Assembly (NCBI GenBank): GCA_965113315.1
Contig: OZ220368.1
Origin: Podarcis vaucheri
Taxonomy: Eukaryota
Strand: one strand, 5' to 3'
DNA: 64,000 bases
A program made the position numbers and the translations under genes. This document shows positions 32,446 to 43,987 of this stretch, in pieces (position 1 is the stretch's first letter; each line of letters begins with the position of its first letter). The notes beneath the pieces are model-generated. The model had not been told where the DNA came from. It did not search any database and saw only the letters and a program-made list of their open reading frames with translations.

Positions 32446-32454
32446 GTATCCTTT
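32446..32454 (+). other. MAPK14: U12-type (minor spliceosome) 5' splice site of MAPK14 intron 8
   Basis: GTATCCTTT exactly matches the U12 donor consensus RTATCCTTT and falls at the phase-required exon end. Confidence 0.95.
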
Positions 32455-33844
32455 AAAAACATCTAAAAATGAACTGAAACATTCATTTTCACACACAGCA
32501 ACATGTAACCCAAGGAAGACTTAGGAACCAGCTCTGCACTTTGGTGTTGGAATTATTTCTATGCAGATGAATGCATTTTGAGAACTACTGCTGCATTCTC
32601 CAAGAATGCTTTTTGCAGGTGGTTGAAATGCATTATTTCAGTCTGTGGTTTAACATTAGGGTTTCACTTTCTCTGTCTTTGCTTGTTCTTCTCTTTAAAA
32701 GCTTTGAAAGTGGTCTTCCACCTTGAAGGGAAAATGTAATTACTTTTTTCAGCATCTCTGAGATCTGTTTTCCAGTTCCAGTAATTTAAATGTCCTGTCA
32801 AACTACTTCAAATTTGATACTAAGGTTCTATGAGAAGACCGGTTCCCTCATAATGTTTGGCAACCCCAGAGTAAAGGGATATCTTGACAAGTCAGTGTCT
32901 TGGCTAGTAAAAGGGAAGAATATATAATCTACAGGTAGATCTGTTAATCTGTTCTTATGTAACTAGTAAATATGACACAAAATAAAGGATTCTGTGTTGG
33001 CCCATAAGAAAAATTCCAAAATCCATATTATGGCAATACTTTTATTAAGCCAACCAAAATAGTGGGCAAGCAATCGAGTTCTCAAATCAAGACTTGGGAA
33101 GAGAATGCATGGCTGGTGGTAATACCATGGCTGTGCATTTTGGAAGATTCTAAAGGCAAAATGTGGAAAGAGGTAGTAGGCTCCAAAATGAAACTCTTAA
33201 ATGCTGTGTTGCTGTTTCTTTGTACCAAGGTTTACTTGAAAGGAAGAAACAATGGCAAATTTCCTATCTTTGGAACTACAAAAACCAGCTGTTACTCAGG
33301 TCTGTCTCCATCCTTACATGAAGCACACAGGTTTATGTTTTATGTGACTTGGATAGATGGAAAAGCAAAATAAAGAGGAAGGGCTATAGCTCTGGGTTGG
33401 AGCATCTGCTTCTTACCTTCCTAAAGAGAAAGGCAGTCTTATTAACATAAGTGTACTTTTTTTTTACCTTGCACCCCTCCTATACTTAACTTTTACCCAC
33501 CTGAACTTTCTACCTCTGATAATATAAATACTATCTACTTTCTCTTCATTCTTCTCTACCTGTCCAGGTCACACAAAAAGTAAACCTGTATGGCGTTTCA
33601 CCTAAAGATAGAAGCAAACCAGGGTACCAGTTGTTTTTTGTATACAAATTTTGTTTAAAAAAATAAAGATGGGAAATCAGGTATTATCAGCCCATCTTTA
33701 TACCTTGGTGCAACCTGATACCTGCATAGCGCTTACAGAACCTCATTTGAATGTCTGCTGCTTCCTCCCGCAGTATGCCACAGGATTCTTTATCAAGTGC
33801 AGACTCATGGCTTTACCACTAGCTAAATATTCTGTCCCCAGCCC

Positions 33845-33985
33845 CCCATTTTATCCACACAACAGCCTTAGGCTGAGCAACAGGGACTGGCCCAAGGTCA
33901 TCCAGTGAACTTCATGACTGAGTGGGGACTTGAATCTTGGTCTCCAGGTCCTAGTCCAATACTTAAGCCTCTTTAACATACTGGC
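33845..33985 (-). mobile_element. Old tRNA-derived (MIR/Squam-like) SINE fragment
   Basis: GACTGGCCCAAGGTCATCCAGTGAACTTCATGACTGAGTGGGGACTTGAATCTTGGTCTCC is the reverse complement of a tRNA head plus core. Confidence 0.65.
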
Positions 33986-36674
33986 ACACTCTATAATATA
34001 AAAAAGTGTTCTGTGTATAATTCAGAAGATGTATTTGGTCCCTAATCTGAAGTCTAAATCATTGGCAGGATCCGTGCAACCCTTTTATTAGTTATTAATG
34101 GAGAGATTTTGAAAGATATGAATATCTTGATATTCTGTCCAGTTGCACTGTGTCCACCAAAATATGTTCTATGGGAATGAAACATCTAAAAGTTTCCGGG
34201 TTATCCGTCTAAAAGTAATAAATAAATGGATTGAATCCTAGGGAAATAAAATATATTTTTGCATTTAGTTTTCCGACTAGTAAATATTGAAGGGGAGTGT
34301 GTGATGTTGATCTTTGTGGAAAAAACTTAACACATTTATTTTAGGTTTTAGGCTAATATTAGAAGGTGTGAAGATGGTCAAAGTCATTTATTTTATGGTT
34401 GTTTTTTACCAAACTTTCCCAGAATAGATGAGGCAAATGTGAAAACTATATGATACATTTATAGCCTAGATGTTGGATTTTTCCTTGTTTTTGTTGTGTT
34501 ATCCCTTTGCTTTCACTTCTTCCTGTTCACTTCTCCTTTTCCAAGACCCTTACAGTTGTCTTTCTTCTTCTCTTTTTCTGTCTGAGGTATGTAGGAAAAA
34601 AAGTTTCTTGCCTAAAGGGCAAAATAGACATGTTTTAACTATGTTGGGTGCAATTTTCATTTTTACAATATAAATATTTGTACTCTTTTCTCTATTACAT
34701 GTACATACTCCTCTTTATGAATGGTCCTAAATGAAGTTGTGTTTGCCTTCCACAAATCTTCACTCCAAATGTGGCAGTTATTTAAGGCTAGGGTGGGCAG
34801 TGATAACCATTTCTGTCAGCTTCTTAATGGGAATAATGGATATGCATTCAAGGAATAATAACACATTGGCTTACATTATAAGAATTCTGTGAGTACACAC
34901 AGCATGCAAATTGGTTTAACCAGTGGCAGGAATTTGTAAAGCAAGCTTTTATTGCTCAGCTCTTGGAAATCTGATCTGCAGGAGATAGTGGGTTTGGGGG
35001 CTCCATTAGTGGGAGTTGCCAACTTTAACACTTGATGATCAGCAGCTACAGGTAAGGGAATGATTAAATGCCCAAGCTGTAATTGGTTAATATGCTGCAT
35101 GTGCAGACTTAACTTCCATAGCTAAATTATGTGTTTGAAAATTGCTAGAGGTTTGAGCATAACCAAAGTTGTATTTGGTAGCACTGAGTAAAATCTAATC
35201 TAAGTAAAATCTAAAATCTGGTTATTGCTGAACAGAGTTCATATTTCTTCTATCCTAACCCATATTAGGGTGCTCTCCATATTTTGAAATCGTAAATAGG
35301 GAATCGGGGGCTGGGCCTGTGTCTTCAAGTAATGTACCTTGATTAACCTATTTGGGACAAGTTGCTTTTTTAAAAATAATAATAAATCTTACTAACTGAA
35401 TTACTACAATGATCTGGAATGACTAATTGGACTGTGATGTAGAATTTGTTATAAACATATTCTAAGTCAGGAAGATTTCTCAAAAAGTAGCCATATCAGA
35501 ATAACGTGTTCTGGGTACTCTTGGTCTTGAATGCCCACTTGGACCTGGCATCTGGATTTTGCTTTAAACTTGGCTTTTTGATGTATTCACTGTTGGTTGT
35601 GGTAGCAAACTTTTCCCTTTTCTGTATGGTCAGTATTGGGACTTGCCAGTTCTTGAAATTCATTCTTTTCTGAGATCTGCATGCTTTTCTTTGCTCATGG
35701 CTTTCTATGCACTCTGTTTACTTTTGCTCTGAGTTTACTAACAACTCTTTTTTAGTTAAGTAGCGGTTCACACATTATATTGTTGATATATAGATGCAAC
35801 AATCTTGTAATATTTTAACTGATTCATTGTGTTGGTTAGCTGCTTCCAACTGCCTTCTGCTTCTTGCCCTAGAAAAGACTTTGTAGTAAAGTAATTAATG
35901 TTTGTCCGTGTACGCAGCAGATACAGTCTGTAAAAAAATAAATAGCACTGACAGCAGATATAGTTTTAATTACATTCAGATAGCACTTAACTTTCAAATA
36001 CTTCAAACAACCAGAAAATGGTTGACTTACCATTATTTAAATGGCACATGGATTCATACTTTTGGTTGTACTATATAGTGTTCCCTTGTTTTAATTTACA
36101 AACTTGTGTTAACTTGTTCTGGCTGAAGGCTGAAGCAAATAGATGAAAACTGGCATCTTCTTTCAAAGATGAGCCTACATTGTGCAGGTTGTGGTTGGAG
36201 GCCTCAATTCAAATCCAGCCCAGAATTCACAAAGTAGCTTTTGGGAAGTTACTGCTAGAAAGTAACTTGCTTTAAGGCTTAGTATAAGGTGGGAATTATT
36301 TTGCAAATTGAATTTATATCCTGCCATTCCTTAGGACAGCCCTGATGCAGTTTCAAATTCAGGAGATTAGATTTTAATATTCAGGGGCTGGAAAGTTCTC
36401 ACTCTCCAATAGCTATGGGATTTCCTATGCAGTCAATAACTTTTTCTTACTCTCCCCACCATTGGGAGTATTGCTCATGAGCCCCAAGCCTGCTTTCCGA
36501 TCTTAAGGATAGCAATTCCAGGTGGGGTATAAGTTCTAGGGCCCCTAAGGAGTTTGTGACTAAGAGTGGGACTTTTTCAATCATTTCCCTGCTATGTTAC
36601 ACTAGCTGTTGTCTGGAAAACTCCCAGAGAGGACAGTGGAGGGAAGCAAGTGTAACTCATTAAAATATATATAA

Positions 36675-42475: not shown

Positions 42476-42519
42476 GTGAGATGTGGCAGGGTGTGCATAG
42501 TGGTCTGCAGTTCAAAACA

Positions 42520-43480
42520 TTTCTTTATTCATTGATCTTTAGCCCATCTTCCAGGGCATAGTCCTACTAACGCTGCTCACAAAACTGAAACAGCATAGAA
42601 CACTTAAATACATTATCACAACTCTGTCTCCCAGTCTAAAACCAACAGTGTTTAAAAACCCCAGCACACTGCACTTAAACAGAAGATAGACCTGAACAGT
42701 TCAGAATCTACTTTAAGGCAAATATAATTGGGTCTCATGAATTCATAGAGGTGGAGCTACTACAACAGAAGTCTGTCTCTGCCAGAGGACTAGCGATTAA
42801 GGCTCTTAAGGCCCAGGCAGGCCCATATGGGTGCTGGCAGTCCATCAGAGAACCTGCTGCCAAACACTTTAGGTCTTTAAAGGCTAAAACCATCACTTTA
42901 CATTGAGCCTTGAAGCAAGCTGGCAACCAGTGAAACTGGTATTATGTAAGGTTCTCAAAACACCTAGCCCCCACAAGCATTCTAGCAGCTGAGTTTCCAG
43001 AGCACATTAAAAAGGTAAAGGTAAAGGACCCCGACAGTTAAATCCAGTCGCAGACGACTCTGGGGTTGCGGCGCTCATCTCGCTTTATTGGCCAAGGGAG
43101 CCGGCGTACAGCTTCCGGGTCATGTGGCCAGCATGACTAAGCCGCTTCTGGCAAACCAGAGCAGCACACAGAAACACCTTTACCTATTTATCTACTTGCA
43201 CCTTTTTTGACGTGCTTTCAAACTGCTAGGTTGACAGGAGCTGGGACCGAGCAACGGGAGCTCACCCCGTCACAGGGATTCGAACCACCGACCTTCTGAT
43301 AGGCAAGCCCAAGAGGCTCAGTGGTTTAGATCATGGTGCCGCCCACGTCTCTCTATCCAGAGCACATTATGATAGTATAATTTGCAGGTTGTCAGAACAT
43401 CGATAAGTGAAGCAAGGTCTGCTTCTCTGCATAGAGCCACAACTGGTGAACTTTCCTAAGCTGATAGAAAGCTTCCCTTT
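42520..43480 (-). mobile_element. Degraded L2-like LINE fragment, interrupted by a Sauria SINE
   Basis: The minus strand gives a decayed KVMVLAFK.L....G.L.D...PY.P...LR (ORF 42735-42926), typical of the L2 ORF2 C-terminus. Boundaries approximate. Confidence 0.6.
43010..43355 (-). mobile_element. Full-length Sauria SINE with 14-bp TSD
   Basis: AAAGGTAAAGGTAAAGGACCCC... to ...GCCCACGTC. TSD TCCAGAGCACATTA at 42996-43009 and 43356-43369. Confidence 0.95.
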
Positions 43481-43987
43481 ATAGTAACTAGGATTTTTAA
43501 AAATGTGCTACTGCACAGCTGTAGGCAGCATAATTAGCTTATACTTTGGGTCTTTTAATAGCAAGTAATGAAAATCCACAAAAGAGAACCAAATTTGCTG
43601 AAACTTTCTAATTAAGTAGTCAACAGATTGTAACCATCCAGTTCAAATGGGACTCTTCTAGTTAGTTGCAGAAACAACATTTGTATTTGGTTAGTGCTCA
43701 ACTACATAAAGACACCTGGATGCCACTGCTGACCTCCAGGAACTTGTCCTCACTTGCAGCAACTTTCAGTATATAACAGGCAATGTTCTTCCAGCCTTAC
43801 AACTCATAGTGCCCTAGTTCCAATGCTTGTTAATTGTATCTCTGTCGCTGTGGTCAGTCTGGATGAGAAGGGGATGAGGATAAGATAGATGCTGATTAAG
43901 CTCAAGCAGGAAAAGGTAGGCACTCAAAGGAGCTTATAATGATTAGGAGGCACAACCTTAAAAAAATGTTTTTTTCTTTTTCTCCAG

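Follow-up and report, generated by a model that had tools for sequence, protein, structure and literature searches.

Among the closest described relatives of the arrangement studied here are exons 6a and 6b of the JNK genes MAPK8/9/10, which are duplicates separated by a hybrid interval (PMC1874599). In these genes a 72-nt in-frame exon is duplicated upstream of a U12 intron, giving two U12 donors and one U12 acceptor, and the hybrid interval has a U12 5′ end and a U2 3′ end. The layout, a mirror image of the one in MAPK14, has been studied in JNK2 by minigene (Chang et al. 2007, PMC1874599). Exons 11/11a of TMEM87A/B have the JNK-type polarity in an unrelated protein; they are mutually exclusive, interlocked with a minor intron, and tissue-biased (Olthof et al. 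2019, PMC6717393). MAPK12 exon skipping and the shared 3′ splice site of CENATAC involve a U2 donor with a U12-type 3′ end, and this pairing is spliced upon minor-spliceosome impairment, which indicates that such a barrier can leak (PMC8329584). The MAPK12 case probably involves the same intron as that of its paralogue MAPK14.

In human and mouse, MAPK14 (CSBP1/CSBP2; ENST00000229794, ENST00000229795) carries two 80-nt exons of phase 1-0, in the same order as in the locus described below. The pair is annotated as mutually exclusive (PMC5740500 supplement), and the event is dated to Vertebrata. Both genes are listed as minor-intron genes with the same donor (PMC6717393 supplement). Both 9a and 9b are used in human and mouse tissues, 9b being brain-enriched in the tables for both species, and the isoforms are reported to differ in activity (PMC1431701). 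Exon pair, U12 intron and tissue bias have thus all been tabulated before, and the feature is real and mostly ordinary. Within the literature covered, which includes few subscription papers, no text states that the interval between the two exons is a hybrid with a U2 5′ end and a U12 3′ end. The appendix of PMC5740500, in which five human U2/U12 cases are listed, may well do so; MAPK14 is absent from the main text of PMC7954323. What we add is the comparison of the two mirror images within one genome, messenger decay as a confounder, and a retro-chimera.

The stretch of DNA analysed, hereafter the window, is 64 kb long, and all coordinates refer to its plus strand. It holds the MAPK14 orthologue, the p38α stress kinase gene, and its exons 9a and 9b are the counterparts of human and mouse exons 9a and 9b, as judged from the sequence. 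Exon 6 (31389..31436, U2 donor GTAAGG) and exon 7 (31910..32024, U2 donor GTACGG), which encodes DFG...APE, are followed by the 72-nt exon 8 (32374..32445) with its U2 acceptor. Exon 8 is homologous to the exon duplicated in the JNK genes. It abuts a U12-type 5′ splice site of phase 1, GTATCCTTT (32446..32454), that opens intron 8. Downstream lie exon 9a (38377..38456; 80 nt, phase 1-0, U2 donor GTGAGT), which corresponds to p38α residues about 228-254, and exon 9b (42396..42475; 80 nt, phase 1-0, U2 donor GTGAGA). The U12 intron measures 5931 nt to 9a and 9950 nt to 9b. Both U2 donors face the single acceptor of the 79-nt exon 10 (43988..44066), a strong U2 site with a 16-nt pyrimidine run and CAG. 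A second p38 gene begins about 54 kb into the window and runs on into L002; we infer that it is the tandem neighbour MAPK13.

The differences from human and mouse are not of kind. The exon peptides are identical to the human ones at 26/27 (9a) and 27/27 (9b) positions, a single residue of 9a differing, and among the best 60 of 88 PDB matches to the exon 9a query every one is p38α. The donor is the same in all three species, ACC followed at the junction by GTATCCTTT, and the 9b branch 12-mer is off at one position. The long U12 intron (9950 nt here) reaches 11704 nt in mouse and 23579 nt in human. An earlier note on this DNA, which had named the gene MAPK14 and linked the exons to CSBP1/CSBP2, was right on both counts, and its U12 donor at 32446, its acceptor coordinates, its GTGAGT and GTGAGA donors and its two intron sizes were all confirmed.

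A young LINE-fused MAPK14 retrocopy lies on another contig of the same genome (G000:C10, L001 3696-4435, minus strand). It starts with the last 18 nt of exon 6, lacks introns 6 and 7, and still carries the first 535 nt of the U12 intron 8 (32446..32980 of the window), directly past which an AATAAA starts at 32981. There a LINE 3′ end carrying a (TTA)n tail follows the spliced MAPK14 sequence. Since this copy ends inside intron 8 and has no exon 9, we rejected its 100% exon-8 match as a paralogue or as a full retrocopy in which an 8>9 junction could be read. LINE-mediated chimeric retrotranscripts combine cellular RNA at the 5′ side with the 3′ end of a LINE. The C10 element resembles this class and may differ from it in the captured RNA, a pre-mRNA from which only some introns had been spliced and whose end lies within a U12 intron. 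No target-site duplication was found at the chimera, the longest word shared by its flanks being 5 nt, and no copies of its LINE tail were found within the 64-kb window.

Exons 9a and 9b are homologous copies in tandem that agree in length and phase and share 39/80 nt and 11/26 amino acids. The frames 8-9a-10 and 8-9b-10 are both open. Skipping of both exons (8-10) shifts the frame, as the earlier note had stated, and leads to an early stop. Double inclusion (8-9a-9b-10) also shifts the frame and brings a premature stop 21 nt into 9b, 59 nt before the 9b/10 junction and with three junctions downstream. Nonsense-mediated decay (NMD) is therefore a confounder for exclusivity, a point that the note had missed, and ordinary RNA-seq that lacks 9a>9b reads is no proof of incompatibility.

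The donor of intron 8 fits the RTATCCTT pattern of U12-type 5′ splice sites (GT-AG subtype). The U11 and U12 snRNA genes are present in the genome, with ends that complement the donor and the branch sites; the U11 gene starts with AAAAAGGGC, and its 5′ end is complementary to GTATCCTTT. The motif RTATCCTTT alone occurs twice in 64 kb versus 1.71 expected, and 48/100 shuffles reach two, so that the position rather than the motif is the evidence. Of the homologous exons found in seven MAPK loci of the genome, 10/10 have GTATCCTT as their last letters, in a shared codon position; all four p38 and all three JNK genes thus carry the same U12 donor. This positional conservation, the U11 complementarity and the human and mouse catalogue bear out the U12 class that had been assigned to intron 8. 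The second RTATCCTTT, at 41435 in the interval between 9a and 9b (ATATCCTTT), was considered as a bypass donor and rejected, the window count being at chance.

The acceptors are less uniform. The note had described both as U12-style, which is better supported for 9b than for 9a. At 9b (42373..42395) a branch site near TTCCTTRAY, with the core CCTTGAC, stands at the right spacing, 13 nt from branch A to an AAG acceptor where about 10-20 nt is usual, and matches the site listed for human and mouse at 11/12 nt. Pyrimidines make up 11/20 of its context and T 4/20, the fewest among the 24 acceptors scored. The single-copy paralogue acceptors are barely richer (12, 12 and 13 of 20), so the pyrimidine poverty of 9b is not a special lock. 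At 9a (38353..38376, TTTTCCTTTAT, TAG) the spacing is 14 nt and the branch site is degenerate: eight bases pair with the genome's U12, but a U-U mismatch stands beside branch A, and the context is pyrimidine-rich (15/20). Within a fixed range of 13 nt, a branch motif of this kind would arise by chance with a probability of roughly 0.0004 for 9a and 0.0026 for 9b. On ad hoc weights, our own and picked after the sites were seen, the 9a acceptor tops 771 intronic AGs, though it is non-consensus beside branch A. On the same weights 9b (9.26) falls below both the intron-10 acceptor (9.86) and one U2 acceptor (9.5); unweighted, 9b scores only 5.5, and 140/771 intronic AGs reach 6. The intron-10 3′ end (44785..44799), which is paired with a U2 donor, has CCTTGAC and AAG after a 22-nt pyrimidine run. 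This internal control shows that CCTTGAC/AAG by itself is no obstacle to the major spliceosome.

The 3939-nt interval between the two exons (38457..42395) is accordingly a hybrid, as had been claimed, with a U2-type 5′ end (GTGAGT) and a U12-type 3′ end (branch site and AAG, no pyrimidine tract). The further claim that it should be unspliceable is too strong, since U12-type 3′ ends are usable by U2 donors, as MAPK12 and CENATAC exemplify. By analogy with these cases, the barrier between 9a and 9b is probably soft. The JNK-type design that the note had invoked stands as far as the mismatched ends between duplicate exons are concerned; the polarity is opposite. Each of the three JNK genes in the genome has the U12 donor and the hybrid layout. 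In MAPK14, unlike JNK, an 80-nt frameshifting exon is duplicated downstream of the U12 intron, giving one U12 donor and two U12 acceptors, and because the duplicate is frameshifting, decay can back up exon choice. The JNK donor is the same and sits at the same codon position. As read from the exon and splice-site layout, the MAPK14 switch operates in the manner of the JNK one but goes back to a duplication of its own.

The sequence evidence points, with a probability of roughly 70%, to a switch in which one U12 donor and two mismatched copies of exon 9 would leave one copy per mRNA, with NMD clearing leaks. Exon 9 was probably duplicated along with its flanks, so that both copies inherited the U12 acceptor and the U2 donor. 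The U11/U12 machinery would then splice exon 8 to 9a or 9b, and the U1/U2 machinery would splice the chosen copy to exon 10. The 9a donor would find no usable partner at 9b, whose acceptor has no pyrimidine tract, and leaked products would likely be removed by NMD. The choice between 9a and 9b may be set by tissue-specific factors, and the outcome would be two kinases differing over residues about 228-254. In human and mouse, loss of ZRSR2/ZRSR1 causes retention of the MAPK14 U12 intron and lowers the protein (PMC8883539).

The exclusivity might instead be mostly apparent, with appreciable 9a>9b splicing and destruction of the frameshifted product by NMD. The 80-nt length of the exons and the stop in 9b with its three downstream junctions would allow this, and U2 donors are able to share a U12 3′ end. 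The frameshifting type accounts for 60% of human mutually exclusive clusters (PMC5740500), but the same paper reports joining reads in just 22% of such clusters. Against it also stands the 9b acceptor itself, an AAG without a pyrimidine tract, the strong U2 acceptor being instead at exon 10. We consider this explanation improbable.

Somewhat less probable still is the idea that trans-acting factors and exon definition govern both the choice of one exon and the exclusion of its partner, with the intron classes as an inherited by-product. It agrees with the mammalian skipping of 9b, which amounts to 0.42-0.48 of reads in brain versus 0.68-1.0 elsewhere (the tissue order was taken from sister tables), and with the dependence of JNK2 exon choice on a pyrimidine tract and Nova. 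The acceptors are also similar in paralogues that have no duplicated exon; a profile search with seven exon peptides found no second exon-9 copy between exons 8 and 10 of the MAPK11, MAPK12, MAPK13 or JNK genes. However, such factors account for the 9a/9b ratio and not for the two exons not being joined, and simple counts of the splicing-factor motifs YCAY, TGCATG and YGCY in the exon flanks of about 250 nt showed nothing distinctive and were uninformative.

It is very doubtful that the layout has been retained mainly for autoregulation, as a valve by which active p38 would stabilise U6atac and speed the removal of its own intron 8. The same U12 intron occurs in all seven p38/JNK genes and is thus ancestral, not p38α-specific. 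In human cell lines p38 activation raises U6atac about twofold (PMC3728624), and MAPK14 protein drops on U12 intron retention (PMC8883539); in Younis 2013 neither the main text nor one supplement contains the word MAPK14 or gives it as a target. The retrocopy records a transcript that had lost introns 6 and 7 and kept intron 8, but it is a single event, and length alone (5.9-10 kb for intron 8 versus 0.35-0.47 kb for the other two) predicts this removal order. The p38-U6atac feedback loop is in any case not new, as it was proposed in a 2025 preprint (PMC12637451).

A broader reading, which we hold to be a long shot, is that one ancestral U12 intron has served two times over as a lock on exon choice, in mirror-image form, with an upstream duplication in JNK and a downstream one in p38. 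Exon 9a shares 19/26 amino acids with MAPK11 exon 9 and only 11/26 with 9b, so on this reading the duplication in p38 may be older than the separation of MAPK14 from MAPK11. Both p38α acceptors would depend on U12, and their branch sites are built differently; a change in minor-spliceosome activity, which p38 itself would raise via U6atac, would therefore alter the 9a/9b ratio along with the total output. Minor-spliceosome failure would lead to in-frame skipping of exon 8 into 9a (7>9a), not 9b, and in the C10 retro-chimera the germline would preserve a fossil of a stalled or prematurely ended intron-8 intermediate.

p38α is a central stress kinase and a drug target, and the two exons swap its residues about 228-254. 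MAPK14 lends itself to a clean test of the strictness of U2/U12 incompatibility in the polarity not studied in JNK, and to a test of whether the level of the minor spliceosome sets an isoform ratio.

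MAPK14 (p38-alpha) lies on the plus strand of the window at about 17485-46220. Exon 8 (32374-32445) ends in GTATCCTTT and is followed by two 80-nt copies of exon 9, at 38377-38456 (9a, donor GTGAGT) and 42396-42475 (9b, donor GTGAGA), both as the earlier note had described them; exon 10, which begins at 43988, has a strong U2 acceptor. The frame is open with 9a alone or 9b alone between exons 8 and 10. It is shifted when both copies are skipped, which agrees with that note, and also when both are included, in which case a stop falls 21 nt into 9b, 59 nt upstream of the next junction. 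Skipping of exon 8 (72 nt; 32024 to 38377 or 42396) would be in frame, as would a hypothetical U12 splice from exon 8 to exon 11 that skips 159 nt.

The U12 donor motif is not rare per se (2 observed against 1.71 expected in the window), and its evidential weight is its position. The U12-donor-like ATATCCTTT at 41435-41443, inside the 9a-9b interval, was set aside as its frequency is that of chance. Both U11 and U12 snRNA genes are found in this genome (L013, L014, L015 and L016: two loci resembling U12 snRNA that exceed the Rfam cut-off, one strong and one degenerate U11 locus), with 5' ends complementary to the MAPK14 donor and branch consensus. The branch A stands 14 nt from the acceptor in 9a and 13 nt in 9b. 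With a branch score whose weights are our own, chosen after the sites were seen, 9a scores highest among 771 intronic AGs and 9b falls within the top 7; unweighted, 9b is unremarkable at 5.5 (140 of the 771 score at least 6). The 9b acceptor has the fewest pyrimidines among 24 acceptors scored (11/20), and those of the single-copy paralogues are hardly richer (12-13/20). Intron 10 has a U2 donor, yet at its 3' end (44785-44799) CCTTGAC and AAG follow a pyrimidine run of 22 nt. Therefore the barrier at 9b, if real, would be the absent pyrimidine tract rather than the branch motif.

We give a probability of about 70% to the reading that mutual exclusion is spliceosome incompatibility backed by nonsense-mediated decay. 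The splice signals, frames and family layout of MAPK14 are observed; the 9a donor would be unable to use the 9b acceptor, and tissue factors would set the 9a/9b ratio. Use of both exons in Podarcis vaucheri is expected from conservation. U12 3' ends are reported to be used by U2 splicing in MAPK12 and CENATAC (PMC8329584), and decay alone, acting on the frameshifted double-inclusion product, might account for the exclusivity; we regard decay alone as an unlikely explanation.

The exon-9 feature is genuine and conserved, and its mammalian counterparts have been catalogued already. The human pair is annotated as mutually exclusive exons in PMC5740500, which reports five human U2/U12 cases without names in its accessible parts. 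MAPK14 of human and mouse is tabulated as a minor-intron gene with the same donor as here, and the listed branch site is identical to our 9b site at 11/12 positions (PMC6717393). The 9a coordinates given in PMC8373072 fall within the listed human minor intron, and the supplement of that paper assigns the exon event to Vertebrata; both isoforms are backed by peptide and structural evidence (PMC4465641). An explicit description of the MAPK14 U2/U12 hybrid was not found in the literature searched, as far as its accessible parts go; the PMC5740500 appendix may hold one. Skipping of the downstream exon is 0.42-0.48 in brain versus 0.68-1.0 in other tissues (PMC6717393; tissue order as in the sister tables), and exclusion driven by factors is less probable still than decay alone. 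On loss of ZRSR2/ZRSR1 the U12 intron of MAPK14 is retained and MAPK14 protein falls (PMC8883539). If the minor spliceosome fails, exon-8 skipping into the pyrimidine-richer 9a acceptor is predicted, as reported for MAPK12.

A LINE-fused MAPK14 retrocopy lies on contig C10 (minus strand, about 120066695-120067434; L001:3696-4435; source 31419-32980 in the window). Its 740 nt run from the final 18 nt of exon 6 through exons 7 and 8 into intron 8, of which the first 535 nt are present; introns 6 and 7 have been excised exactly, and the 6 mismatches to MAPK14 all fall within the intron part. The final ~144 nt of a young repeat, ending in a (TTA)n tail, are joined to it. The 40 repeat matches scored, out of 1396 candidates, are all 99-100% identical; among 22 other copies examined, several extend upstream by as much as ~3.1 kb, are truncated at different 5' points and carry (TTA)n tails, and one young copy (L029:297-3281, minus strand) holds an uninterrupted 994-aa endonuclease/reverse-transcriptase frame. 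These traits identify a LINE, and the C10 copy is thus a LINE-made chimera of an RNA with U2 introns 6 and 7 spliced and the U12 intron unspliced; a target-site duplication was looked for there and not found. The family was probably active recently, because its copies are 98-100% alike. AATAAA at 32981-32986, starting at the first base after the retrocopy/intron 8 junction, possibly reflects polyadenylation within the intron or a switch at an A-rich point, or may be chance, since four more lie within the next 1.3 kb. The retrocopy records one event, whose splicing order could also follow from intron length alone, and so lends weak support to slow U12 splicing. The p38-dependent stabilisation of U6atac invoked in the earlier note is shown in PMC3728624, in whose accessible parts MAPK14 is not named, and the possible loop that the note raised had already been suggested (PMC12637451); a dedicated feedback valve is very improbable.

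Searching the genome with exon 8 located the other p38 and JNK genes, whose putative names are assigned by sequence and genomic neighbourhood; one JNK exon matches the published human MAPK9 exon exactly. The seven loci found are four p38 genes with one exon-8 homologue each and three JNK genes with two each, and all ten homologues terminate in GTATCCTT at an identical codon position. The exon after the U12 intron is double only in MAPK14 and single in MAPK11, MAPK12, MAPK13 and the JNK genes. The latter (L005 4166-4674; L009+L012 and L010+L011, minus strand) all keep a duplicated exon with two U12 donors, the copies being 365, 301 and 4137 nt apart. A second p38 gene in tandem, by inference MAPK13, occupies about 54000-64000 of the window, continues in L002 and has a single exon 9 and the same U12 intron, here 1195 nt long. 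Exon 9a matches MAPK11 exon 9 at 19/26 aa and 57/80 nt but its own partner 9b at 11/26 aa and 39/80 nt, which would fit an early duplication followed by loss of a copy from MAPK11, or else rapid divergence of 9b.

A review names JNK and TMEM87, with MAPK14 unnamed in its accessible parts (PMC8329584). The JNK2 hybrid, in a study whose accessible text does not mention p38, has the opposite polarity to MAPK14 (PMC1874599); the hybrid design earlier ascribed to JNK genes stands in all three JNK genes of this genome, in mirror image to MAPK14, and the MAPK14 mechanism is the mirror form of the JNK switch. As the same U12 donor recurs in seven loci while the duplicated exon differs, the sequences point to one ancestral U12 intron, around which JNK genes duplicated the upstream exon and MAPK14 the downstream one.
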